Positions 2,978 through 53,973 of a stretch of 64,000 nt of DNA are shown here, piece after piece; the first letter of the stretch is position 1, and each line of letters starts with the position of its first letter. The stretch is from a virus (lineage: Duplodnaviria; Caudoviricetes): IMG/VR virus record IMGVR_UViG_3300008255_000098. One strand, 5' to 3'. A model generated the notes under the pieces. The model made no database searches and was not told the DNA's origin. It worked only from the letters and a program-made list of their open reading frames with translations. Both the position numbers and the translations under genes were made by a program.

Positions 2978-3027
2978 ATAAAACCACAGCAGGGAGATTG
3001 ATTCGATACCAATATTCCGCACTGTAT

Positions 3028-3104
3028 GCACGATGGGCTGGCTGGGATTAGGCACCTTCTCGACATGGAGGATTAGACAGGTTCAATTCCTGTGTCGTGT
3101 ACCA
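3028..3104 (+). tRNA. tRNA-Val(GAC)
   Basis: CCTTC-TCGACAT-GGAGG; ACCA end. Confidence 0.88.
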
Positions 3105-3232
3105 AATTTTGTAGGCTATGAGCATTATTACAATCTGTGAAGGAAACAAGTATTATATACATCAACAACGTATTTTTAGCGGTCTTTTTTTTGGCATGTG
3201 ACACAAAGCTAAAATTTAGCATTTAGAGGTTT

Positions 3233-3475
3233 ATGAAAAAATTAAATTTAGGTATTCTTTATAAAAATGGGAAGGTAGTAGATCATCGTTCAGCTTTACA
3301 GGTTTTTTTAAATCCCTTTTTACGAACAGCGGGATTTGAAATTTGCTCTATCTTTTTAGATGGGGAATTTGACAAATACGAAGTTAGAAAACTAGAAAAG
3401 GCGCAAGAATTTAATTTTGATTTATATTCTTGGAATGATTTTGATGAGGTAGAAAAGAAAAGACGAATAATATAA
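3233..3475 (+). CDS. hypothetical protein
   Basis: ORF with GAGG RBS between tRNAs. Confidence 0.7.
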   Translation: MKKLNLGILYKNGKVVDHRSALQVFLNPFLRTAGFEICSIFLDGEFDKYEVRKLEKAQEFNFDLYSWNDFDEVEKKRRII

Positions 3476-5127: not shown

Positions 5128-6726
5128 ATGTGCGGAATTTTTGCCTATAAAGGAAGTTTGATTCCCTTTGAGGAACTAGAAAAGCAATTTATGAAATTGC
5201 AACATAGAGGACCAGACAACATGCAAATAGATGTTGACCCTCAAAAAAAAGTATTTCTAGGTTTTCATAGATTATCAATAATGGATTTAACTTCCAAAGG
5301 AAACCAACCATTTGTTGATGGTACAATACGTTTGTTGTGTAACGGAGAAATCTATAACCACGAGAGTCTAAAACAGGAAATAAATTACAAATGTCACTCT
5401 GCAAGTGACTGTGAAATTTTACTACCACTTATTGAAAAATTTGGGTTGCTTGAAACATCTAAAAAATTAGATGCAGAGTTTGCACTAATATGGTATGACC
5501 ATAAAACACAAAAAATGATGGCTGCACGTGACCCAATTGGCATTCGTCCTTTATTTTGGGGGAAGACAACTTCTGGAGAAATAGCCTTTGCGTCCGAGGT
5601 CAAAGCATTAGTGGACATTTGTGAGTTTGTTGAAGCATTTCCACCGGGATTTATTTGGGATGGCAATGAATTAATTGAATTTAGTGATGCAGGCTGTCAG
5701 CCTAAAAAAACTCTTTCCGGGTCAGAGCCCATGAAAGAAAAAGAAGTCCTGTACGGAATATCCTATAAGCTTACAGAGGGTGTTAGAAAGAGGATGGGGG
5801 CTGACGCTCCGATTGGATTTTTGTTGAGCGGAGGTCTTGACAGTAGTCTAATTTGTGCTTTGGCAGCTAAAATCTCTGACAAGCCTATAAAGACGTTTTC
5901 TGTGGGGTCAAATATTGACGCAATTGATAATAAATATGCAGAATTAGTTGCAAAACATATTGGCGCTGAACATACTACAGTATTGTTTACACAACAAGAT
6001 GCAACAAGTAGACTAGATGAGCTAATTCGAAAATTAGAGACGTGGGATATTACGACTATCCGTGCTTCTGTTGGAATGGATTTTGTATGCGAGTGGATAC
6101 ATAAAAATACAAATATTAAAGTGTTGATGACAGGAGAAGTTAGTGATGAATTATTTGGATATAAATATACAGATTATGCCCCGAATGCAACTGAGTTTCA
6201 AAATGAAGCAATTAAAAGAATGAGAGAATTATACATTTATGACGTACTTCGAGCGGACAGGTGTATTTCTGGGCATTCGTTAGAAAGCAGAGTTCCTTTT
6301 GGAGATTTAAATTTTGTAAGCCATGTGATGAATATTCCAGCTGAAATGAAAATGAACACACACGGGCAAGGAAAATATTTATTACGCAAAGCCTTTTCCA
6401 ATATTAACCTTTTGCCGGAAGAAATCCTTTATAGAGAAAAGGCAGCGTTTTCAGATGCAGTTGGACACTCAATTGTTGATGGAATTAAGTTTTATGCTGA
6501 AACCAACATAAGTGATAAAGAGTTATTAGATGCAAAACAAAAGTACAGTTATGGAACTCCTCTGACAAAGGAAGCTTTATTGTATCGTAATATTTTTGAA
6601 AGACACTATCCTGGCAGAAGTGAGTTAATTAAAGATTTTTGGTTACCAAATAAAAATTGGGAAAATTGTAATGTTACTGATCCAAGTGCTCGTGTGTTGC
6701 CTAATTACGGAGACAGCGGCAAATAA
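5128..6726 (+). CDS. asnB: asparagine synthetase B (glutamine-hydrolysing)
   Basis: N-terminal CGI, HRGPD, LGFHRLSI, CNGEIYN, LSGGLDSS, ESRVPF. Confidence 0.97.
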   Translation: MCGIFAYKGSLIPFEELEKQFMKLQHRGPDNMQIDVDPQKKVFLGFHRLSIMDLTSKGNQPFVDGTIRLLCNGEIYNHESLKQEINYKCHSASDCEILLPLIEKFGLLETSKKLDAEFALIWYDHKTQKMMAARDPIGIRPLFWGKTTSGEIAFASEVKALVDICEFVEAFPPGFIWDGNELIEFSDAGCQPKKTLSGSEPMKEKEVLYGISYKLTEGVRKRMGADAPIGFLLSGGLDSSLICALAAKISDKPIKTFSVGSNIDAIDNKYAELVAKHIGAEHTTVLFTQQDATSRLDELIRKLETWDITTIRASVGMDFVCEWIHKNTNIKVLMTGEVSDELFGYKYTDYAPNATEFQNEAIKRMRELYIYDVLRADRCISGHSLESRVPFGDLNFVSHVMNIPAEMKMNTHGQGKYLLRKAFSNINLLPEEILYREKAAFSDAVGHSIVDGIKFYAETNISDKELLDAKQKYSYGTPLTKEALLYRNIFERHYPGRSELIKDFWLPNKNWENCNVTDPSARVLPNYGDSGK

Positions 6727-6834: not shown

Positions 6835-7146
6835 GTGTTATTCCTAGCACAGAGGCAGGATTTGTTAGTTAACACCAAAGAAGCGGAAAATGAAGCTATT
6901 TTAGCTGAACTTGATAAGAACGGGTTTGTTTGGGTGTCCGTGACAAATAAACAGAATGAACATATCAAAATTACCAAAACGACAACTTGGAAAAATGGTG
7001 ATTTAGTTTTATGTTTATTTAAAAAAGAGTTGCATGTCATGTTAGTTAAAAAAGAATCTATCTTAGAAGATAAAGAACGAGTTATTTTTGTATGTCCTAA
7101 AAATATTTTTGGAAAAGCAACACAAAGGAAGAACAAAAATGACTAG
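6835..7146 (+). CDS. hypothetical protein
   Basis: ORF overlapping the NAD kinase start; true start uncertain. Confidence 0.55.
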   Translation: MLFLAQRQDLLVNTKEAENEAILAELDKNGFVWVSVTNKQNEHIKITKTTTWKNGDLVLCLFKKELHVMLVKKESILEDKERVIFVCPKNIFGKATQRKNKND

Positions 7147-8053
7147 GTATAAAAAAATTGAGAATATCCTTGTTGTTTACAAAAAGAGTAGTCTCCAAGA
7201 AGCTATTGACCACAATAACAAAAAAATCTTAGACTTAGTAAAAGAGAATCACCCATCAGTAGCAGATTATGTAATGGCGGATGAAGCACACTCTTTATCC
7301 CGTAAAAATGTTAAAGATGCTCTGGACGCCAAATTTCATGTTGAATATCAATATGATGTTGTTGAAAACGAAGTAAATAATTATGATTTAGTAATAACTG
7401 TAGGAGGAGACGGAACATTTTTGTGGGCGTCAAAGTTTGTTAATTCTAAAGTACCAATGCTGGGAATTAATTCTTCCCCAACAACTAGCTTTGGCTTCTT
7501 TACTGCATACAAAGGCAGCGACAGAGATTCTCTTATGACCTTGGCTGTTGATTTAGAAAGGCTAGGAATCAAAAGCTTTTCTAAGAAAAAAGTTGAGGTT
7601 GATAGGTTGTCACTTTTTGTAAATGGAAAAATGCTTCAAGACCACATTTTGAATGAAGTTTTATTTGCCGCTGAACATCCAGCAGCAATGACAAAATATG
7701 AAATTGTTATTTCGGATGGTCAAACATCAACCGTAGAAGTTCGTGAACCGCAAAGCTCTAGTGGAGTCTGGATTTCAGCACCAGCAGGATCGACTGGCGC
7801 AAATTATAGTGCTGGAGGTCAAGTATTAAATTTATTTGATCGTCGTGGGCAATATATAGTTCGGGAACCAGCAGTGGGTGGGATGTGTTCCCTACACGGG
7901 TTTTTCTCACACGGCTCATCTATTAACTTTCTTTGCAAAACAAGAAAAGCGATTCTTGCATGTGACGGAACAAATATTACAATTCCAGTGACTATTGGAG
8001 ATTATATTTCTATTCAACATTCTAAAGAATCGCTTATTATTTTAGGGAAATAA
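7139..8053 (+). CDS. nadK: NAD kinase
   Basis: GGDGT motif, LNE motif, SSGVWISAPAGSTG.NYSAGG. Confidence 0.9.
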   Translation: MTRYKKIENILVVYKKSSLQEAIDHNNKKILDLVKENHPSVADYVMADEAHSLSRKNVKDALDAKFHVEYQYDVVENEVNNYDLVITVGGDGTFLWASKFVNSKVPMLGINSSPTTSFGFFTAYKGSDRDSLMTLAVDLERLGIKSFSKKKVEVDRLSLFVNGKMLQDHILNEVLFAAEHPAAMTKYEIVISDGQTSTVEVREPQSSSGVWISAPAGSTGANYSAGGQVLNLFDRRGQYIVREPAVGGMCSLHGFFSHGSSINFLCKTRKAILACDGTNITIPVTIGDYISIQHSKESLIILGK

Positions 8054-8331: not shown

Positions 8332-8775
8332 ATGAATTTTGAAACTCCGAAATTAGCTGTTGATTGTATTGTAATAACCCCGAAGGGAGTCGTTCTTATA
8401 GAACGAAAGAATCCGCCTCATGGGTATGCAATTCCTGGCGGGTTTGTTGATGTTGGAGAAACTTTAGAAAATGCAGCTCGACGTGAAATGAAAGAAGAAT
8501 TAAACCTGGATGTAAAAATCCTTGGTAGATTAGGCATTTATGATGAGCCCATTCGTGATCCAAGGCAACATGTAATTTCTGTTGTTTATGTCGGGAAAAG
8601 CGAGTTATCTCCTGTGGCTGGCGATGATGCAAAAGAAGCATTTGAAATTCCTTTGAAAATTGTTGATGGAGAGCCAGTTTTCGATCGTAAATTTGCGTTT
8701 GATCACGAAACCATTCTTAGAGACTTTATTAAATCGGAATTTCTACAAGTTTATAGATTATATTACGGTAAATAA
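8332..8775 (+). CDS. Nudix hydrolase (ADP-ribose pyrophosphatase-like)
   Basis: PGGFVDVGETLENAARREMKEE Nudix box; RDPR and AFDH motifs. Confidence 0.93.
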   Translation: MNFETPKLAVDCIVITPKGVVLIERKNPPHGYAIPGGFVDVGETLENAARREMKEELNLDVKILGRLGIYDEPIRDPRQHVISVVYVGKSELSPVAGDDAKEAFEIPLKIVDGEPVFDRKFAFDHETILRDFIKSEFLQVYRLYYGK

Positions 8776-8776
8776 T

Positions 8777-9994
8777 ATGGAAAAAACATATACACGAAGA
8801 GGATGGATACGTTCTATCCGAAAGAGTAAGAAACTCAGTTTTATCAGTGCCACTGATGGACAGGATGAGTTTCAGCTTACTATTAAACATTTTGGAAAAG
8901 AAGACGATAGTAAAGTTTTTGGAGACTTTAAAGTAGGAGCTTCATTTGAAGCGTTTGGTAAAGATAGCTATACCCCACGTGGAGATTACGAATTTTCTGT
9001 AAAGGAAATTAAAATTGTTGGCGAAGCGGCTGACGATTTTGCTATTCAACCTAAAAAACATAGTGACGATTTTTTGCGAACTATTCCTGAAGAACGTGGC
9101 AGAACTGCTTTATATCAGGGAGTTTGGAGAATTAGGCATAAGGTTTCACAAGAGTTACATCGGTTTTTTACGAGCAAAGATTTTATACAATTCTGGACAC
9201 CTTGCATTACATCAGCGGATTGTGAGGGTGCAGGAGAAACATTTTCAGTAGAAACTGACTGGCTTAAAAGCCATCTAACGGTTTCTGGTCAACTGCATGG
9301 TGAAGTTGGTATGATGTCCTGTGGGAAGATTTATACTTTTGGGCCGTGTTTTCGTGCGGAGAAATCAACTGGTCGTCGTCATCTTGCAGAATTTTGGATG
9401 TTAGAACCAGAAATGGCTTTTTATTCTCTAAAAGAAACAATGGACCTTGTAGAAGACTTACTCAGCCATGTTTTTAGAGTCGCATCAAATGAATATGAAA
9501 AAGAATTTGAGAAAATGCGGGTTTCAATGGACCATATTACTGAAATGATATCTTTGCAAAAAGCGTGGCTCCGCATGACATATGAAGAAGTTTGTGATAA
9601 ATACGGGCTTGTTTGGGGCACGGATATTAATGCTGAGTTGGAGCGCAAGCTAACAGAAGATTTAAAATCACCAGTATTTATCACTCATTGGCCAAGGGAA
9701 ATGAAACCTTTTTACATGAAAAATGACGGAATCGTAGCAGAGTGTTTTGACCTCATTTTCCCAGAGGTCGGAGAACTCATAGGGGGCTCTGTACGTGAAG
9801 AAAATTTTGAGAAACTTAAAAAATCAGTAGTTGATTCTGGAATAGATGCACAATCAATGGATTGGTATCTTAAAACTAGAAAACACGGAACAGTGCCACA
9901 TGCAGGTTTTGGATTGGGTTTTGAGAGACTTATAATGTATATTTGTAAGTTAGAAAAGATTCAAGATACGATTCCATTTCCAGTTAGTTATTAG
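8777..9994 (+). CDS. asnS: asparaginyl-tRNA synthetase
   Basis: OB fold; LTVSGQLHGE; FRAEKS..RRHLAEFWMLEPE; PHAGFGLGFER. Confidence 0.95.
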   Translation: MEKTYTRRGWIRSIRKSKKLSFISATDGQDEFQLTIKHFGKEDDSKVFGDFKVGASFEAFGKDSYTPRGDYEFSVKEIKIVGEAADDFAIQPKKHSDDFLRTIPEERGRTALYQGVWRIRHKVSQELHRFFTSKDFIQFWTPCITSADCEGAGETFSVETDWLKSHLTVSGQLHGEVGMMSCGKIYTFGPCFRAEKSTGRRHLAEFWMLEPEMAFYSLKETMDLVEDLLSHVFRVASNEYEKEFEKMRVSMDHITEMISLQKAWLRMTYEEVCDKYGLVWGTDINAELERKLTEDLKSPVFITHWPREMKPFYMKNDGIVAECFDLIFPEVGELIGGSVREENFEKLKKSVVDSGIDAQSMDWYLKTRKHGTVPHAGFGLGFERLIMYICKLEKIQDTIPFPVSY

Positions 9995-10337: not shown

Positions 10338-11129
10338 ATGCAAACTTTTGATTTAATAAAAATGAAACAGTCGTGTGCTTTGGCTGCTGAGACGTTATTG
10401 TTTGTTGGAGATATTATCAACGAAGGGATGTCTACAGGGGATATAGATATTTTAGTGCATGAATTTATTCTTGGGGCATTTGCTTATCCCTCCCCACTTC
10501 ACTATCAAGGGTTTCCAAGATCAATTTGTACAAGTAGAAATAATGTAATGTGCCATGGAATTCCAAATAAAAATGAAATATTGGAAAATGGCGATATAAT
10601 CAACATAGATATAACTACATTTTTTCCAACCCAAGATGGTTTTCACGGAGACACTAGTGCTACATTTTATATTGGAACCCCTTCAGAGGAAGCACAGCGT
10701 ATAACAAGAACTGCTCGTGAGTGTTTAGATTTAGGAATTGCAGTGGTGAAGCCAGGAGTTTATTTTGGAGACATAGGGGATAAAATTGTTTCGCATGCTT
10801 TACAAAATAAATGTTCTATAGCACCCGAGTTTGTTGGACACGGTATTGGTAAAGAATTCCACACTAACCCATATATTGACCATTGTGGGAAAAAAAACAC
10901 AGGAAAAATTATCGAGGAAGGAATGATTTTTACGATTGAGCCAATTTTAAATCTTGGTACTTCTGAACATATAATTTTAGAAGATGGATGGACTGTAATA
11001 ACAAAAGATGGTAGTTTAAGTGCGCAATTTGAACATACAATTTTAGTAGTCGAAAATGGTTGTGAAATCTTGACAGAAAGAAATAGACCACTTAAAAACT
11101 CATTAGAAACTATTAGTAATAAAATTTAA
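10338..11129 (+). CDS. map: methionine aminopeptidase
   Basis: CHGIP, GDIINID, HGDTS, GHGIG..FH, FTIEP, SAQFEHT. Confidence 0.96.
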   Translation: MQTFDLIKMKQSCALAAETLLFVGDIINEGMSTGDIDILVHEFILGAFAYPSPLHYQGFPRSICTSRNNVMCHGIPNKNEILENGDIINIDITTFFPTQDGFHGDTSATFYIGTPSEEAQRITRTARECLDLGIAVVKPGVYFGDIGDKIVSHALQNKCSIAPEFVGHGIGKEFHTNPYIDHCGKKNTGKIIEEGMIFTIEPILNLGTSEHIILEDGWTVITKDGSLSAQFEHTILVVENGCEILTERNRPLKNSLETISNKI

Positions 11130-11928: not shown

Positions 11929-12178
11929 AAGAAAAATTGAAAAATGTCCGCTATGTGGTTTTAGTGATATCTATGTCGGGGCAACAGCCGTGGAGTGTGG
12001 ATACACTAATAAATGCAAAAACTGGACACAAAAGCAGGCTAACGTTGTGAAAGAATTATTCAAAAAACAAGAAGCTGCGGCAGAAATACACAAAAACAAT
12101 AATTTAGGTTGGGATGAAGATGAAGAAACAACTTCCCCAAGTGGCGGCTTTTATTTGTATGACGGATTTTCAGATTAA
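11921..12178 (+). CDS. hypothetical zinc-ribbon protein
   Basis: CPLC...C....C. Confidence 0.7.
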   Translation: MSKRKIEKCPLCGFSDIYVGATAVECGYTNKCKNWTQKQANVVKELFKKQEAAAEIHKNNNLGWDEDEETTSPSGGFYLYDGFSD

Positions 12179-18601: not shown

Positions 18602-18964
18602 GGGGATAAATTGGATTCGACTTGGGAAACAACGGAACAATAACGTTGTAGTGGATGTTCACGCCCACTTAAATATCGTGAACAAATATAAATGCAGATA
18701 ATGCACCACTTGCTCTTGCTGCCTAAAAAACACTAGAGCCGTTGAACGGATAATGTGCTTCGATTACCGGGAAATGTCATTTTAGAGGCTAGACGAAATT
18801 ACCATTGGATTGCTTTTGAGTAATTAGTTTAAATTAGTAAAAGTAAGAACCCGCTGTAGATGCTTGTAGCTTAGATGCGGAAAATCTAAAATCAGGATAG
18901 ACAACGTAAATGTTTTTCTAGAAGTTCTTGAGGACGAGGGCATCGAAGCCCTCTATCTCCACCA
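18602..18964 (+). ncRNA. ssrA: tmRNA
   Basis: 5' GGGGATAAATTGGATTCGAC; 3' TATCTCCACCA with G3:U70; tag ORF 18694-18726 ADNAPLALAA*; pseudoknot-1 helices GTGG/CCAC and GTTCACG/CGTGAAC. Confidence 0.96.
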
Positions 18965-19349
18965 AAATAAACTATTGCTGTAATATGGATACTACAAACG
19001 AACAATATATAAATCGCCAAGATTTAAAAACACCTACTAAAAAGCTATCAGCACAGGTTGCCCATGATGTAATGCGTATAAATTTATCTTTTGCGGGTGC
19101 AATTAAGAATTTTTCTGATTTTTCTTGTGAGTCAGAAAACCTTCCAATTTGTATGGTTTATTACGTCAAAAAATGGAGCCAAACTTCTAGCTTTAGAAGA
19201 GAAAATCAAACAAACTACTATTCCATACGCCATGCAGCGAAACGCTGAGTATAATTTTGTATCCAAAGATACTCAACAGCATTGTGTATTGGGCTAGATA
19301 TAAAATCAAAAATAAATTCTTTAACAAAACGATTGCAGGTTTACAAGTT

Positions 19350-20210: not shown

Positions 20211-20456
20211 ATGGAATCTTCTGGATTGACAGTTAAAACATTAATTGGAAAGCTTAAAAAGCAATGGGCACCTGCATCTGCGATTGTGGTAAATGATATA
20301 ATCATTCTAAGCAGCGAAGAGTTCTGGGTGGTGTCAGAGGTAAGGAAAAAGTCGAATGGGTTCTACACCATCCTCAGCGAGCAGGGGGAGGGTTCTTTTG
20401 AGGTACCACCAGCAGAAATATTCCTTATTGTGAACAGGGGGTGTTATGGTAGCTAA
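20211..20456 (+). CDS. hypothetical protein
   Basis: ORF downstream of promoter-like sequence. Confidence 0.65.
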   Translation: MESSGLTVKTLIGKLKKQWAPASAIVVNDIIILSSEEFWVVSEVRKKSNGFYTILSEQGEGSFEVPPAEIFLIVNRGCYGS

Positions 20457-20862
20457 AAATAAAATAGAAAAGTGGAGAGCTTATAGTGTTCCTTATCTAG
20501 AATCTGGAAGTGTTAATTGGAAAAGTGTTCCAGACGGAATAGAAAAAGTAAGATTTTGGGACTACGCCAGTAGAAGTTATATAAATGGAAAAATATTTTG
20601 GGTAGAAAATAAGCCATTTAAAACAGCTTTAAAGTTTGTTTCTTTGTACCACATGGCAAGAGAAAACACTCATTTTATTTTTGAGAATATTGAGACAGGC
20701 GGAAAGTATATTATGCGAAATACTGATTTTGAACATTGCCTCAAAAAAGGAGTATTTATTCATGGTGTTATTTTAGGGGAATGGAGATTTGAACGTTCTC
20801 ACAATAGAATGTCAGTGGTTCCGATAGAATTTATTTCTTCTATTGAGCTTGAGAAAAAGTAA
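20446..20862 (+). CDS. hypothetical protein
   Basis: Overlapping ORF. Confidence 0.7.
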   Translation: MVAKNKIEKWRAYSVPYLESGSVNWKSVPDGIEKVRFWDYASRSYINGKIFWVENKPFKTALKFVSLYHMARENTHFIFENIETGGKYIMRNTDFEHCLKKGVFIHGVILGEWRFERSHNRMSVVPIEFISSIELEKK

Positions 20863-21017: not shown

Positions 21018-21497
21018 ATGAATCCACAAAATAAAAAACAGTTATCGGCACTTAGAGGCGCAATCAAAGGATTGGCCTATTCTGGACAAGAAATTCGAAC
21101 AAGAAATATTGCCACTAGTAAAGGTGAGCAAAAATATGAAGCATGGGCGCTAAAGCGTTCTATCGGACATGTAGCTAGATGTCATTTATTGGCTTATGGT
21201 TTGTCAAGAGGACAAACACGAGAACAAGTAGAAAAGTCTGGCAAAAGAAAAAAGCTAATATATTTGGATAGCTATTTTACAGCTGACAGAACGTACATAT
21301 ATGGATTTAACGCAAAAAAATATGTACAAGATATTTTATACATATTGTCTGTATATAAAATTCTTCCATATGATTGTGACCAGCGGGCCATAGAAAAATG
21401 GCTTGCTGATGGAAATAAAAAGCTTATTTCTTTTGAAGACCGGGAAACCAGAAAGCTGTATAAACTCAAAGATGCTAGTATGTCATGGCTAAGATAA
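21018..21497 (+). CDS. hypothetical protein coupled to PTH2-like gene
   Basis: Strong RBS AAGGAG; R.HLLAYGL.RG motif; overlaps next gene. Confidence 0.8.
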   Translation: MNPQNKKQLSALRGAIKGLAYSGQEIRTRNIATSKGEQKYEAWALKRSIGHVARCHLLAYGLSRGQTREQVEKSGKRKKLIYLDSYFTADRTYIYGFNAKKYVQDILYILSVYKILPYDCDQRAIEKWLADGNKKLISFEDRETRKLYKLKDASMSWLR

Positions 21498-21835
21498 AAA
21501 AAATGTATGTTCTAGTAAGACAAGATTTAGGTGCGGGCTATCAAATTCCACAAGCAATTCATGCTAAAGATAAATTTAGTCACGAACATGCCAAAATTGA
21601 ACATTCGTGGTATGAAGAATCTAATACTATTGCAGTATTAGGTGTAGATAATGAAGAACATTTGTTAGGAATAACACAACACATAAATGAGTTAGGACTG
21701 AAGTTTTCTTTATTTTTTGAGCCAGATATTCAAGAATATACTTCTGTTGCCATAGAACCTGGAGATAAAACATCCGAAATACTCAAAGTGCTCAAAAGAG
21801 CTTGCGGCGGAAAGAGAAAAAGAAATAGAAAATAG
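21485..21835 (+). CDS. peptidyl-tRNA hydrolase type 2-like protein
   Basis: KMYVLVRQDLGAGYQIPQAIHA; TIAVL; FFEPDI..YTSVAI. Confidence 0.75.
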   Translation: MAKIKKMYVLVRQDLGAGYQIPQAIHAKDKFSHEHAKIEHSWYEESNTIAVLGVDNEEHLLGITQHINELGLKFSLFFEPDIQEYTSVAIEPGDKTSEILKVLKRACGGKRKRNRK

Positions 21836-21840
21836 ACTCT

Positions 21841-22020
21841 ATATCATAATATTGACGCAATACGGTAGAAGACGTATGTGGTTGCAAGTTTTGGATCAGT
21901 TTGTGTCTCACACAATCCAAGGAGTTTGATCCCTTAATCCTTTTAATTAGGATTTGATGTTGAACGACCAATCAGCCTAAGTGTACATAGGAGCGTAGTA
22001 ACGCCGCAATATTTTGATGT
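21841..22020 (+). ncRNA. unassigned multi-hairpin RNA
   Basis: About 14-bp closing stem ATATCATAATATTG/CAATATTTTGATGT enclosing at least five hairpins. Confidence 0.55.
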
Positions 22021-22025
22021 AGTAT

Positions 22026-22103
22026 GGGGCCTTGGCAGAAAACTGGAAATGCGGTTGACTTTAAATCGACTTTATGCGGGTTCAATCCCCGCAGGCCCTA
22101 CCA
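22026..22103 (+). tRNA. ochre suppressor tRNA, anticodon TTA (Lys-like body)
   Basis: Full cloverleaf; GTTGA-CTTTAAA-TCGAC; GCGGG-TTCAATC-CCCGC; ACCA end. Confidence 0.9.
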
Positions 22104-36176: not shown

Positions 36177-37292
36177 ATGTCTATGTTTTCAGTGTCCGTA
36201 GAAAAAGTAATAGTAGTTCCGCATCCTCACGCTGACAGACTTGAAGTTGTTCAAATAAATGGATATCAGTGTGTCGTTGGTAAAGACGAGTTCAAATCAG
36301 GAGATATAGTTGCATATATCCCTGAACAAGCCATAATTCCCCAAAATATCTTAGAAGAGATTGGACTTGTTGGCCGTCTTGCAGGGAAAGATAAAAACAG
36401 GGTGAAGTCTACGCAAATTAGAGGAGTTCTTTCCCAGGGAATTGTATATCCTGGCCGAGATTATTGGAAAATTGGCGATGACGTCACAGAAGAACTTGGA
36501 GTAGAAAAGTGGATGCCTCCAGTACCAGCAAAAATGGCTGGAGAAGTTTTTTCGGCCGGTGTCAATAGGACGGTTCACTATGATATTGAAAACTTCAAAA
36601 AATTTCGGAATGTTCTTGTCGATGGCGAACCTGTGGTAATTACAGAAAAAATTCACGGAACATTCTTTTGTGCAGGTGTTATGCCTAATTTTATGGCACA
36701 CCCAGAGTATGGAAAGTTAATTGTTACGAGCAAAGGGCTTGGAGCACGTGGTTTGGCATTTAAATATGATGCTGAAGCTAATGAAAATAATTTGTATGTT
36801 CGAGTTGCCCGGCATTATTCTTTAGAAAATAGGATTACTTCTATTTTCAGAAAGACTTTGTTTCCAACAGGACTTGTTGGCTCTGAAGAAGGTGAACCAG
36901 TGTTTGTCTTGGGAGAAATTTATGGTATACAGGATTTAAAATATGGGGCCAAAGTAGATAAAAATATAGATATCGGATTCAGAGTTTTTGATATCTATAT
37001 AGGAGTTCCTGAGCGAGGGAGATTTTTAAGTGATTCCCAACTTGACAAGGCTTGCGCTGCTCTCGACCTTCCTAGAGTGCCAATAATTTATCGTGGTCCA
37101 TATTCGGCAAATATTCTTCAAGAGCACACAGACGGTCGGGAAACGGTCAGCGGCAAGGATTTACATATACGTGAGGGGATAGTAGTGAGAACGCAGATTG
37201 AGCGCACAGATAGCAAATTAGGAAGAGTTCAACTAAAGAGCGTTAGTGAAAAATATCTTTGCCGCCGTGGCGAAACAACGGAGTATAATTAA
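36177..37292 (+). CDS. RNA ligase, DRB0094 family
   Basis: N-terminal tRNA-binding-like HP.ADRLE; TEKIHGT; GEIYG; FRVFD; REGIVVR; LKSVSE.Y. Confidence 0.92.
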   Translation: MSMFSVSVEKVIVVPHPHADRLEVVQINGYQCVVGKDEFKSGDIVAYIPEQAIIPQNILEEIGLVGRLAGKDKNRVKSTQIRGVLSQGIVYPGRDYWKIGDDVTEELGVEKWMPPVPAKMAGEVFSAGVNRTVHYDIENFKKFRNVLVDGEPVVITEKIHGTFFCAGVMPNFMAHPEYGKLIVTSKGLGARGLAFKYDAEANENNLYVRVARHYSLENRITSIFRKTLFPTGLVGSEEGEPVFVLGEIYGIQDLKYGAKVDKNIDIGFRVFDIYIGVPERGRFLSDSQLDKACAALDLPRVPIIYRGPYSANILQEHTDGRETVSGKDLHIREGIVVRTQIERTDSKLGRVQLKSVSEKYLCRRGETTEYN

Positions 37293-40295: not shown

Positions 40296-40526
40296 ATGAC
40301 AAAACTCGGAGATGCACTCATGACGATTACGTACGACTACTTTTGCAATGACTGTGAAAAAGAGTTCACAGCTGAACAATCCATTAAAGATGAACCACTG
40401 ACCAAGTGTCTTATTTGTGAAGGTAATGATGTCTTTCGCCTTCTTAGTAAAGATAGTACCTTTATATTAAAAGGCAGTGGTTGGTTTTCTGACCTTTATT
40501 CAACTCCAACAAATAAAAAAGAATAG
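40296..40526 (+). CDS. FmdB-family zinc ribbon protein
   Basis: YDYFC..C.....C..C...F.LKGSGWF.D.Y. Confidence 0.88.
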   Translation: MTKLGDALMTITYDYFCNDCEKEFTAEQSIKDEPLTKCLICEGNDVFRLLSKDSTFILKGSGWFSDLYSTPTNKKE

Positions 40527-40530
40527 TAAA

Positions 40531-41823
40531 ATGTTTAATCCTACACACAATACAAGTCAATGTATTCATATGTCTCCAGGCAATAAGGTATCTATTGCTG
40601 GAAGAGTTGTATATTTTCGTAAGCACGGCGGGGTGTCTTTCGGAAAGGTTATAGACCAACACGGCAGCATCCAATTTTGTGTACGAAAGGCCGAAACACC
40701 AGAACGGTATTTAGACTGGCGTAGTGAAATCAAGATAGGAGATATTGTTTATATTTCTGGGGAAACTTGGATTTCAGCCAGTGAAGAAAAGAGCGTATTG
40801 GTTACAGAAGATTTACAAATTTTACGACATTCCACACATCCTTTCCCGAACAAGGCAACAGGAATTGTGGACCCTGAAATAAAGATTCGTAAGAGGTATT
40901 TAGATATTATTACCAACCCCGAAGTTAAGAAGGTGTTTCAAACACGCTCTAAGATTGTATCTGAGATTCGTAGGTTTCTAGAGAGTTATGACTTTATGGA
41001 AATTGAAACGCCTGTGTTGCAAGTAAATGCATCAGGCGCTCAGGCAAAGCCGTTTTCAACGCACCACAATGCATATGATTCGGACATGTATTTGCGTATT
41101 GCCCCTGAAACTTATTTAAAGCGTGCAGTAGCGGCATCTTTTGATCGAGTGTACGAAATTGGAAAGAACTTTCGTAACGAAGGTGTTGATAGTGCTCATT
41201 TGCCCGAATTTACATCGGTAGAATTTTATGCAGCTTATTGGGACTATAAGGATAACCTAAAGTTATTTCGAGAAATGTTGGCAGCGTTGCTGGAAACGGC
41301 GGGTCATGGTGGTGGTACTGTCGTGTTCCAAGATTCTATATATAATTTTAATGACATTGAATGTGTAACTTTTGAAGAGATTTTTCAAAAGTATGTCGGA
41401 AAGTCAACCGCAGAATTCCAAAACAAGGAAATTGATACAATTTTCAAGGAAAGGGTTCGTCCAAACCTTATACAGCCTATCTTTGTTTTGGACTATCCAG
41501 CATATATGAGCCCGCTTGCTCAACGGAGTCAGGATGGAAAGACGGTGGAACAATGGCAATTTATTGTAGGAGGGGCAGAGCTAGTAAAGTGTTATACTGA
41601 GTTGACTGACCCAATTTTACAAAGAAAGCTCCTAGAAGAACAGGTTGCCCAACGTGTTGGCGGCGATGACGAGGCTATGATGCTTGAAGAAGATTTTTTG
41701 GAAATGCTCGAATATGGCTGCCCGCCATGTAGTGGTCTTGGTCTTGGTATTGATAGGTTGGTGGCTCTCTTGACTAACCAAACATCCCTGCGGGATGTTG
41801 TACTTTTCCCCACAGTGTTCTAA
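40531..41823 (+). CDS. lysS: lysyl-tRNA synthetase (class II)
   Basis: R.RYLD, GA.AKPF.THHN, YLRIAPE.YLKR, FRNEG....H.PEF, GLGLGIDRL. Confidence 0.96.
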   Translation: MFNPTHNTSQCIHMSPGNKVSIAGRVVYFRKHGGVSFGKVIDQHGSIQFCVRKAETPERYLDWRSEIKIGDIVYISGETWISASEEKSVLVTEDLQILRHSTHPFPNKATGIVDPEIKIRKRYLDIITNPEVKKVFQTRSKIVSEIRRFLESYDFMEIETPVLQVNASGAQAKPFSTHHNAYDSDMYLRIAPETYLKRAVAASFDRVYEIGKNFRNEGVDSAHLPEFTSVEFYAAYWDYKDNLKLFREMLAALLETAGHGGGTVVFQDSIYNFNDIECVTFEEIFQKYVGKSTAEFQNKEIDTIFKERVRPNLIQPIFVLDYPAYMSPLAQRSQDGKTVEQWQFIVGGAELVKCYTELTDPILQRKLLEEQVAQRVGGDDEAMMLEEDFLEMLEYGCPPCSGLGLGIDRLVALLTNQTSLRDVVLFPTVF

Positions 41824-47581: not shown

Positions 47582-48040
47582 ATGAAAGAATGCTATAGAT
47601 GTAAAAAAACTAAAACTGATTTAGAATTTAGTAAAAGTTCTTCACATAAAGATGGGTTGCATTCTTATTGTAAATTTTGTCAAAAAGAAATGGATCAACA
47701 ATATTGGCACAATAAGAAGAAAAATCCAAAAAGAATGAAACAAAGACGGCAACTTATCAAACAACGACTTGAAGAAGCACGAGAATATGTTTTTCAATAT
47801 TTATTACAACATCCTTGTAAGTGCGGTGAAACAAATCCATTGTTTCTTGAATTCGATCATCTTGGTAAAAAGAAACAATCAATTTCCGATATGGTTGGTT
47901 CAAAATTAGCTGTTGAATCTATTCGAAGAGAAATAGAACAATGTCAGGTCTTATGTATAAAATGTCATAGATTTAAAACTGCTAAAGAGTTTGATTGGTG
48001 GATTATTAAAAGATATAATAAGTTACAGGGTATGGCGTAA
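47582..48040 (+). CDS. HNH / EndoVII-like homing endonuclease
   Basis: CxxC..CxxC zinc finger; CGETNP..LEFDH; CQVLC..CHR.KT. Confidence 0.88.
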   Translation: MKECYRCKKTKTDLEFSKSSSHKDGLHSYCKFCQKEMDQQYWHNKKKNPKRMKQRRQLIKQRLEEAREYVFQYLLQHPCKCGETNPLFLEFDHLGKKKQSISDMVGSKLAVESIRREIEQCQVLCIKCHRFKTAKEFDWWIIKRYNKLQGMA

Positions 48041-48101
48041 TCTGGTAGCGTACCCCATTCGGATTGGGGAGGTTTGGGTTCAAATCCCTCCACGCAGACC
48101 A
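48026..48101 (+). tRNA. chimeric tRNA-Pro(CGG) with mispaired acceptor
   Basis: CCCCA-TTCGGAT-TGGGG arm; 5' CAGGGTA pairs at only 4 of 7 positions with 3' CACGCAG; ACCA end. Confidence 0.8.
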
Positions 48102-48448: not shown

Positions 48449-48538
48449 TGCGGGGATGAAGGCCGGTGGTAAGCCTCCGAAGTCTCATAAGCTTCGAACT
48501 TCTAAAGTGCGCAGGTTCGATTCCTGCTCCCGCACCCA
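48449..48538 (+). tRNA. tRNA-Met(CAT), initiator-like acceptor, long variable region
   Basis: TGCGGGG/TCCCGCA; loop CTCATAA; CCA. Confidence 0.85.
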
Positions 48539-49515: not shown

Positions 49516-49588
49516 TGGGCTGTAACTCATCGGTCAGAGTGGGGTTCTTATAAAGCCTTGGTAGTGAGTTCAACTCTCACCAGCCCAA
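49516..49588 (+). tRNA. tRNA-Ile(TAT)
   Basis: GGGTT-CTTATAA-AGCCT; acceptor TGGGCTG/CAGCCCA; A73. Confidence 0.88.
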
Positions 49589-49617
49589 CCGAAAGGGAAA
49601 AGAAATATTACCCTATT

Positions 49618-53355: not shown

Positions 53356-53973
53356 ATGAAGCAATATCCAACAATTCCTGCCAAAAATAAAACGGGTGCT
53401 ACCCATTTTTGGGTATTTAACAAGCTTGATGGTTCAAATATTAGGGCTGAGTGGTCAAAAAACCGAGGGTTCTACAAATTCGGCTCCAGAAAACGGCTAC
53501 TTGGCACAGACCAAGGTTTAATTTCCAAGGCTTCCATGCTTGCGACAATACAAGAAGAGAAGTTTCGTGAAGTATTTAAGATAGCTAAGATCGACCGAGC
53601 AATTTGTTTTTTTGAATTTTTGGGTCCGAATTCCTTTGCGGGAAATCATGTTGATACAGATGAACATAGTTTAGTTTTATTTGATGTTGATGTGTATAAA
53701 CATGGACTATTAAATCCAGGCGAGTTTCTCAAAATTTTTGGTGAAAGTAATATTGAAATTCCAAAATTGTTACATTATGGAATAATCGACCAGAACATCG
53801 AGTCTCTCATCCATTCAGGAAGTCTTCCAGGGATGGGCTTTGAAGGCGTTGTATGCAAGGCCCGCCGCCCGAAAACATTTTCTGAGCCTATCATGTATAA
53901 GATTAAAAACCAAGCGTGGATTGACAAAGTGAAGGCCAATTTTGACAAATCAAAATGGGAAGAGTTGTTGTAA
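53356..53973 (+). CDS. RNA ligase-like nucleotidyltransferase
   Basis: KLDGSNIR, FFEF, LFDV, FEGVVCK, YKIK. Confidence 0.8.
   Translation: MKQYPTIPAKNKTGATHFWVFNKLDGSNIRAEWSKNRGFYKFGSRKRLLGTDQGLISKASMLATIQEEKFREVFKIAKIDRAICFFEFLGPNSFAGNHVDTDEHSLVLFDVDVYKHGLLNPGEFLKIFGESNIEIPKLLHYGIIDQNIESLIHSGSLPGMGFEGVVCKARRPKTFSEPIMYKIKNQAWIDKVKANFDKSKWEELL

Follow-up and report, generated by a model that had tools for sequence, protein, structure and literature searches.

The 64,000-nucleotide stretch of phage DNA analysed here (referred to as the window; IMG/VR record IMGVR_UViG_3300008255_000098, Caudoviricetes) encodes a tRNA whose anticodon, UUA, matches the stop codon UAA. The comparisons described below indicate that this tRNA is maintained by selection, and that it is not an error and very probably not a passenger. 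We think it rather more probable than its opposite that it is a functional UAA-reading suppressor giving limited read-through, which is kept by huge phages of standard genetic code beside a gene related to the peptidyl-tRNA hydrolase Pth2, and that the Pth2-like enzyme and a transfer-messenger RNA (tmRNA) clear the by-products. The two genes at the centre of this proposal are:

22026..22103, + strand: tRNA with the anticodon UUA, with a body here called type A and an encoded CCA (ARAGORN; Rfam RF00005)
21485..21835, + strand: gene for a Pth2-like peptidyl-tRNA hydrolase of 116 amino acids, ending in TAG and with no internal stop (Pfam PF01981)

The initial annotation, made by a model from the letters alone, described an intact cloverleaf with an encoded CCA and the anticodon UUA, and the description holds. 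ARAGORN calls tRNA-Stop(tta) at exactly 22026-22103(+), as one of 25 tRNA genes in the window, and Rfam RF00005 matches it with 52.6 bits (gathering score 29), which is mid-range among the window's other tRNAs. Read from the sequence, the acceptor stem has 7 bp, including a G1.U72 wobble. The D-stem is GCA/UGC with a G13.A22 mismatch, and its loop carries G18G19. The anticodon stem GUUGA/UCGAC closes a 7-nt loop, C-U-UUA-A-A, in which UUA is preceded by U33 and followed by the purine A37 and by A38. The variable loop has 5 nt, the T-arm is GCGGG/UUCAAUC/CCCGC, and the 3' end consists of A73 and then the encoded CCA. ARAGORN, Rfam and the pairing among orthologues all describe a canonical elongator cloverleaf. 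The sequence A36-A37-A38 is the motif recognised by MiaA, which introduces N6-isopentenyladenosine at position 37 (i6A37), a modification that stabilises the reading of codons starting with U.

The initial annotation had also raised the possibility that TTA is an assembly error for TTT, in which case reads or close relatives would show TTT. Six contigs bearing the UUA tRNA were found by means of a macro-domain protein encoded just downstream of it. They come from six assemblies, which differ in sample and assembler (three JGI metagenomes, one Logan and two ENA), and carry the tRNA without any difference; in four of these assemblies a 312-bp stretch spanning it is 100% identical. Because the identical tRNA is present in six independent assemblies, an error from TTT to TTA is effectively excluded at the assembly level. 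The diverged relatives also have TTA, and TTT was seen in none of these sequences. Searches of deposited phages and plasmids with megablast and blastn gave no useful match for the locus or for the tRNA.

Related loci were found through homologues of the Pth2-like protein, and are referred to by their numbers. In L078 and L079, which lie on contigs of 230 and 461 kb, the order is collinear with the window: R2K ATP-grasp, tmRNA, VanW, three small genes, Pth2-like, tRNA, methyltransferases and M23 peptidase. The proteins are 35-69% identical to those of the window by tblastn (R2K ATP-grasp 69%, VanW 53%, Pth2-like 51%), and the syntenic tRNA has the anticodon UUA. In L077 the Pth2-like protein is 54% identical and its gene is followed by two UUA tRNAs, while in L031 the identity is 62% and a UUA tRNA is found 3.6 kb downstream. 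Between the two genes of L031 (2784-3677) is encoded a 297-residue protein consisting of the class I Glu/Gln synthetase catalytic domain (PF00749) alone, the size of which suggests a GluQRS-like tRNA-modifying enzyme.

The type A body has an unusual D-arm, UUGGCAGAxAAyUGGxAAUGC, which is common to the tRNAs of the window, of L078/L079 and of the first copy in L077; on this evidence the three are clearly orthologues. Over the 20 stem pairs of the three orthologues, 98.3% of the cells in the alignment are paired, one cell is unpaired, and six pairs have changed on both sides. In controls in which the 3' partners were slid by 1-3 columns, 32-42% of the cells were paired, with 0-1 two-sided changes. 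C32, U33, the UUA anticodon and A37 are invariant. Because the anticodon is invariant and the pairs are compensatory in spite of protein identities of 35-69%, the alignment provides strong evidence for purifying selection on the fold and the UUA anticodon, as expected for a working UUA tRNA.

These data bear directly on the idea that the gene is a neutral passenger or decaying paralogue, that is, a duplicated tRNA that has acquired an anticodon mutation and has no function. Such a gene would account for the lack of a target gene in the window and for the differences in discriminator base among the orthologues. It would not account for an anticodon, U33, A37 and cloverleaf kept with compensatory changes over this degree of protein divergence, nor for the recurrence of a stop-reading tRNA next to the Pth2-like gene in 37 of the 48 lineages described below. 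Covariation and synteny bring the passenger close to being refuted, and we regard it as very improbable. A search of IMG/VR and of JGI metagenomes with the pattern of the type A 5' half, leaving the anticodon open, found no further members and none with another anticodon. One locus that matched the D-arm pattern, L090, was rejected as a chance match inside a GC-rich coding region.

The tRNA starts 190 nt after the stop codon of the Pth2-like gene, and a stop-reading tRNA thus lies within a few hundred bases of it. The putative hydrolase scores 36.8 bits with PF01981 (cut-off 23), and the profile of its family matches solved structures of archaeal Pth2 (2ZV3 with E=1.3e-4; also 1RLK and 1WN2), and so both the family assignment and the structural match are to Pth2. 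It does not reach the cut-off of the NCBIfam equivalog (24.9 against 126), and we therefore treat it as a divergent subfamily. An open reading frame (ORF) with a weak Pth2-like motif (LSAQVAHD...) lies at 18928-19297 of the window, just past the tmRNA, and may be the remnant of a second Pth2 gene.

The pairing of the two genes, which tells more about the tRNA than any other feature and had escaped the initial annotation, extends well beyond the close relatives. Distant homologues of the Pth2-like protein (38-45% identity) have a tRNA with the anticodon CUA at the same place. In a first set from IMG/VR, a UUA or CUA tRNA was present within 3 kb of the Pth2-like gene in seven of nine loci (five of six distinct lineages). 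A wider scan of IMG/VR with an alignment of 11 Pth2-like sequences gave 63 loci, 48 of them distinct, and a stop-reading tRNA lies within 3 kb in 37 of these 48 lineages. By the neighbouring tRNA, they are divided as follows:

CUA: 32 of the 48 distinct loci
UUA: 5 of the 48
tRNA with an odd 8-nt anticodon loop (UUCA): 2 of the 48
none: 9 of the 48

At least one tRNA is present in 42 loci, and in 29 of them the suppressor is the one nearest to the Pth2-like gene. In two large CUA-bearing genomes, G003 (320 kb) and G004 (467 kb, 98% complete), the tRNA adjoining the Pth2-like gene is the only stop-reading one among 38-47 tRNAs; both genomes also encode a tmRNA and the ordinary tRNAs for Lys (UUU and CUU). 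The tRNAs with 8-nt anticodon loops (ARAGORN 'ttca') are at L150:4157-4229 and L154:4933-5008, some 0.9-1.6 kb downstream of the Pth2-like gene, and may be opal or four-base readers.

Locus L184 has a UUA tRNA and G004 a CUA tRNA, and yet their Pth2-like proteins are 65% identical, the tRNA starts 2-3 nt past the gene in both, and the two suppressors share their acceptor stem and an encoded CCA. It follows that one and the same tRNA lineage can bear either an amber or an ochre anticodon.

Nine loci, belonging to at least four lineages (L172, L177, L186-L191 and L192), have a Pth2-like gene that itself contains one or two in-frame stops. All are TAG, at positions that are specific to the lineage (about 3001-3320 in each locus). 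The neighbouring tRNA, where seen, is CUA, and the interrupted genes end in TAA or TGA. The 6 kb around them is not broadly recoded at TAG. Judged from sequence, the matching TAG codons show that the tRNAs of the Pth2-like module serve decoding. The gated form, in which the Pth2-like gene is interrupted by the stop that its own tRNA reads, was seen in CUA lineages only, and the gene in the window is not of this form. The initial annotation had listed regulated read-through, sabotage of host termination and a decoy as the possible roles of the UUA tRNA; the conserved anticodon and the TAG-interrupted CUA cousins favour a genuine decoding of stop codons over a decoy.

The window has a G+C content of 35.6%. 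Besides the 25 tRNAs and the tmRNA, it encodes asparagine synthase, NAD kinase, methionine aminopeptidase, nicotinate phosphoribosyltransferase (NAPRTase), GroES, ClpP, asparaginyl-tRNA synthetase (AsnRS, 8660-9994), lysyl-tRNA synthetase (LysRS, 40477-41823), DNA methyltransferases and two RNA ligases:

36177-37292 of the window: RNA-ligase-family gene
53356-53973 of the window: RNA-ligase-family gene

LysRS and the genes around the tRNA led to relatives on IMG/VR contigs of 160-467 kb, and the source of the window is a huge phage. Two RNA ligases, the Pth2-like enzyme, the tmRNA, two aminoacyl-tRNA synthetases and 25 tRNAs amount to a large commitment to repairing tRNAs and rescuing translation.

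The window uses the standard code and is not recoded. Among 121 crudely called genes, the stop codon is TAA in 60, TGA in 38 and TAG in 23, and the longest ORFs hardly lengthen when any single stop is taken as sense. The initial annotation was correct in noting that asnB (5128-6726), nadK (7088-8053) and map (10338-11129) end in TAA, and in taking this as a sign that there is no wholesale recoding. No Pfam domain was found to span a TAA in read-through translations of the window. All the related UUA-bearing loci that were retrieved fit code 11. G004 and G003 follow the standard code genome-wide, with a code 11 coverage of 0.93 and 0.91 respectively, no 20-kb stretch that clearly gains from reading TAG as sense, and 148 and 61 genes respectively that are closed by TAG. 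Neither the window nor either of these genomes therefore has the character of a stop-codon-recoded phage. A scan of all three for the GGQ motif, using a crude regular expression rather than a profile search, found no release-factor genes.

No structural genes were seen in the window by Pfam and gene annotation, and recoding in phages is often restricted to late genes (bioRxiv 10.1101/2021.08.26.457843). It could thus be argued that late or structural genes outside the window use TAA as sense, with the tRNA acting as a code switch. The two genomes that have the same module and the standard code throughout, over 467 and 320 kb, and the code 11 loci of the UUA-bearing relatives make this hardly tenable, as does a survey of 10,754 jumbo phages in which no recoding of TAA was reported (PMC13037316).

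The gene content is also relevant to a quite different proposal, in which decoding of phage genes is incidental and the tRNA acts on the host, either by disturbing its termination or by replacing tRNA-Lys or shielding it from anticodon nucleases. AT-rich genomes use TAA more than any other stop, and many host genes would be affected; the window is rich in functions for tRNA repair and rescue (the two RNA ligases, the Pth2-like enzyme and the tmRNA), and the anticodon loop of the UUA tRNA is like that of tRNA-Lys. However, the phage closes half of its own genes with TAA, G003 and G004 also possess the usual Lys(UUU) and Lys(CUU) tRNAs, and no direct evidence was found for any link to defence. 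The swap between CUA and UUA on one body, and the TAG-interrupted genes beside the CUA forms, point to decoding rather than to a decoy. We consider manipulation of the host, or counter-defence, improbable.

Three further elements of the locus are needed in order to describe how a suppressor might work here:

21018..21497, + strand: gene for a 159-residue protein, overlapping the start of the Pth2-like gene by 13 nt
21836..22025, + strand: structured spacer RNA (minimum free energy -49.2 kcal/mol, z=-2.7)
18602..18964, + strand: phage tmRNA (Rfam RF00023, 106.4 bits), 3 kb upstream of the tRNA and on the same strand

The N-terminal half of the 159-residue protein is kept upstream of the Pth2-like gene in L031, L033, L077 and L078, as seen from tblastn synteny and alignment. 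It has no Pfam match; AlphaFold2 gives a partly confident model with a mean pLDDT (predicted local distance difference test) of 64 and a helical hairpin at the N-terminus, for which Foldseek found nothing below E=1 in the PDB. The spacer RNA, of 190 nt, is conserved in sequence in L078:10322-10591, L077:3604-3877, L034:729-948 and L033:6418-6540. It contains a T-arm-like hairpin, which reads GAGGTTCGAATCCTC in the relatives. The longer spacers of L077 and L078 close, just before the tRNA, with a second T-arm-like hairpin followed by GGCCAC(C/A)A, an arrangement resembling the way in which a tRNA or tmRNA ends at its 3' side. No Rfam family matches the spacer at E values up to 1. The tmRNA is syntenic in L078/L079, where it lies 5 kb upstream of the Pth2-like gene. 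Between the Pth2-like gene and the tRNA there is no promoter-like or terminator-like site. Since such a site is absent and the structured spacer is conserved, the tRNA is probably made on the same transcript as the 159-residue and Pth2-like genes.

On the basis of these observations, we propose that the gene for the 159-residue protein, the Pth2-like gene, the spacer RNA and the tRNA are carried on one transcript, from which the usual processing enzymes would excise the tRNA. Once charged, it would compete with release factors at UAA, and through wobble at U34 probably also at UAG, and would give partial read-through during infection. Most read-through products would merely gain short tails, the next in-frame stop after a TAA in the window being a median of 7.5 codons away. 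Ribosomes that run to the ends of mRNAs are the substrates of tmRNA, and peptidyl-tRNA that has dropped off is the substrate of Pth2. Ribosomes that run off would accordingly pass to the phage tmRNA, and dropped peptidyl-tRNA to the Pth2-like enzyme. There is a precedent for the first of these roles, as Ueda et al. 2002 are cited (in PMC8012679) for tmRNA coping with read-through from suppressor tRNAs. The activity of the suppressor must be low, brief or dependent on context, because half of the phage genes end in TAA. Read-through might be of use in a few client genes, in manipulating the host, or as an early step toward recoding, as has been proposed for TAG and TGA in phages (bioRxiv 10.1101/2021.08.26.457843).

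If there are client genes, they are not to be found at the sites that the initial annotation put forward. These were in-frame junctions at the TAA codons at 12178, 30695, 31001 and 32609, where the ATG of the next gene follows 0-2 codons on in the same frame. When these four junctions and four similar ones were translated through the TAA, each Pfam domain (chagasin-type inhibitor, Cpn10, RNase T, ClpP, RNA ligase and SNase) was confined to one ORF. These are separate genes, each with its own ATG. Among same-strand neighbours in the window with spacers of 0-60 nt, the next gene is in frame in 12 of 22 pairs after TAA and in 7 of 17 after TGA or TAG (Fisher p=0.52), and the excess is therefore not specific to TAA. 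The junctions are ordinary tight packing of separate genes. Taken together, whatever the stop, 19 of the 39 pairs are in frame, which is above one in three (p=0.03); the starts were crudely called, and this may be an artefact. A backup stop within five codons in frame follows 45% of the genes that end in TAA, compared with 30% in the other two frames (p=0.07), and is mostly TAA again. This enrichment is weak and not significant, and we rejected it as a footprint of suppression.

Alignments between genomes that cross an in-frame stop were screened in the window, the related loci, G003 and G004. The output consisted mostly of antisense-frame shadows, and contained one credible case, in L078/L079. 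A candidate client with a TAG in G003 was rejected, as the gene start falls after the TAG. The credible case and its homologue in the window are:

L078/L079:8553-8963: conserved gene of 136 codons with an in-frame TAA at codon 31, 1.4 kb upstream of the Pth2-like gene
20446..20862 of the window, + strand: intact gene of 138 residues, homologous to the TAA-interrupted gene by cross-genome alignment

The interrupted gene reads ...PKRK-TAA-THWPG..., and the TAA is followed by 106 open codons with no restart codon nearby. Homologues align across the TAA and have an amino acid at this position, Glu in the case of L077 and Asp in that of L031. Over 20 kb a single base separates L078 from L079, and the in-frame TAA is therefore a single evolutionary event. 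The gene belongs to a paralogous family of three copies, and its counterpart in L077 (2142-2270) is a 42-residue remnant that ends in TGA. On this comparison, decay of the gene in L078/L079 is at least as likely as programmed read-through.

It is against this background that we weigh a gene-specific switch, in which the tRNA would be there for a few phage genes with in-frame TAA and read-through at gene ends would be tolerated. The in-frame TAG codons in the Pth2-like genes of at least four CUA lineages offer a parallel, and L078/L079, which carry the orthologous UUA tRNA, have the conserved gene with an in-frame TAA, a long open stretch after it and no nearby restart. The window contains no such gene within its 64 kb, and the L078 case, as a single event in a three-copy family with a remnant in L077, points to decay. 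The authors who described the CUA suppressors of phage XacN1 likewise found no targets for them (PMC5852040). We think that a switch of this kind is unlikely, though it deserves to be kept in view.

The amino acid that the tRNA would carry is less clear. The candidate charging enzyme is:

40477..41823, + strand: phage lysyl-tRNA synthetase of 448 residues (NCBIfam NF001756)

This gene, to which the initial annotation had drawn attention, scores 473 bits with NF001756 against a cut-off of 468, and it has relatives with 61% identity in L001/L002, which belong to the same genomes as L078/L079, and with 54% identity in G003. The UUA anticodon is one base away from anticodons for Lys, Gln, Glu, Tyr, Leu and Ser. 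Because the variable loop is short, the bacterial Tyr, Leu and Ser types are excluded. Lys, which the initial annotation favoured in taking the gene for a tRNA-Lys with one change, is suggested by A73 in the window tRNA and by an anticodon arm that resembles tRNA-Lys, and TTT is the commonest anticodon (18 of 42) among IMG/VR tRNAs with the same 3' half. A second body, type B, found in L031 and in the second copy of L077, is clearly Lys-like and nearly superimposable on phage tRNA-Lys(UUU). With the anticodon masked, the type A tRNAs are closest only to their own orthologues (0.72 and 0.64); their similarity to Lys(UUU) is 0.60-0.64, and the Lys references were fished out with a pattern derived from the same tRNA. 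The Lys affinity of the type A body is thus weak, and in part an artefact of how the references were retrieved. A walk upstream towards the Lys, Gln and Glu tRNAs of the phage itself led to contigs that end before the cluster. Descent of the UUA tRNA from a tRNA-Lys is plausible. Lys is our best guess for the amino acid, at slightly less than an even chance, with Gln or Glu as the alternatives.

Ochre suppressors are well known from the laboratory. In E. coli they include supG/supL (tRNA-Lys changed from UUU to UUA), supB (tRNA-Gln) and supC (tRNA-Tyr); they read UAG as well as UAA, suppress weakly, and are tolerated in cells that have TAA among their stops. Like the window tRNA, they present UUA on an ordinary elongator body. 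They are single-step mutants of essential tRNAs, whereas the window tRNA is a natural extra gene, conserved in its lineage and with a diverged body.

Closer parallels come from three phages: Bacillus phage G has a 'tRNA Sup:UUA' (PMC12484599), Xanthomonas phage XacN1 has two CUA tRNAs whose targets were not found (PMC5852040), and Agrobacterium phage Atu_ph07 has a UCA tRNA (PMC6102473). All are standard-code huge phages with dozens of tRNAs and further genes for translation; as in the window, one or two of the tRNAs read a stop that is still in use, and no targets for them were identified. Their stop-reading tRNAs are unrelated to the window tRNA in sequence, and the papers describe neither conservation across relatives nor a linked gene. 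The phage G tRNA was confirmed in the sequence (L017:2198-2271; JN638751 411932-412006). Its loop is atypical, CCUUACG with C33 and C37, in contrast to the canonical loop of the window tRNA. It sits between tRNA-Met and tmRNA, and proximity to a tmRNA is thus a feature that it has in common with the window. A TROVE/Ro60-like gene (gp540) lies 3 kb upstream of it. The product of gp550 was considered as a Pth2-like partner and rejected, having no similarity.

Recoded phages (the crAss-like, Lak and 'gemstone' clades), in which TAG is read as Gln or TGA as Trp with the aid of suppressor tRNAs (bioRxiv 10.1101/2021.08.26.457843; PMC10879173), resemble the present case in being large and in having a phage tRNA that matches a stop codon as well as other translation genes. 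They differ in that they have many in-frame stops and a much higher coding density under an alternative code, whereas the window, G003 and G004 fit the standard code. No publication connecting Pth2 genes to suppressor tRNAs came to light in a literature search. The kind of tRNA is itself already known; what goes beyond the published record is the purifying selection, the type A body, and the pairing with a Pth2-like gene in which amber and ochre readers are interchangeable.

Several observations weigh against a read-through function for the UUA tRNA. Efficient suppression at ochre codons should be harmful to a phage in which half of the genes end in TAA. No clear adaptation to read-through is seen in the genome, where backup stops are weakly in excess, and no gene that needs read-through of TAA was found in the 64-kb window. 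In the UUA lineages examined, the Pth2-like gene is never interrupted, and the link from tRNA to gene that is seen in the CUA lineages has no UUA counterpart. The discriminator base varies among the type A tRNAs (A in the window, U or G in the other two), their D-arm is atypical, G004 has a suppressor tRNA and no LysRS, and no Pth2-like gene was found beside the Sup:UUA of phage G. For these reasons we put the limited suppressor forward as probable and no more.

A bolder version can be stated. In this version the Pth2-like gene and its stop-reading tRNA form a conserved device, present in dozens of lineages of standard-code huge phages and made amber or ochre by one base; UAA serves as a conditional sense codon in a few proteins that are made only while the device is active, and the hydrolase limits the cost of read-through or clears up after it. 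We advance this tentatively, and consider it doubtful; if it is true, a bacterial virus would for the first time be known to set UAA aside as a conditional sense codon. Phage suppressor tRNAs are usually explained by genome-wide recoding, and the cases in standard-code jumbo phages have been listed as curiosities without targets. The present analysis turns an annotation oddity into a defined and directly testable two-gene unit, in which a stop-reading tRNA accompanies the gene for the Pth2-fold protein in about four fifths of the lineages that have this gene. The unit is relevant to the question of how viruses put up with read-through at the commonest stop, or make use of it, and to how recoding may begin. 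Natural tRNAs that read UAA and UAG, possibly with a cognate phage synthetase, would also be of interest for the engineering of the genetic code.

It is worth adding three observations on the other tRNAs of the window. A tRNA at 48026-48098 is called by Rfam and not by ARAGORN, and a 90-nt tRNA-Met at 48449-48538 is called by ARAGORN and is absent from the Rfam list at the gathering score. A tRNA-Ile at 49516-49590 has the anticodon UAU, which is unusual for bacteria, and one is present in G004 too.

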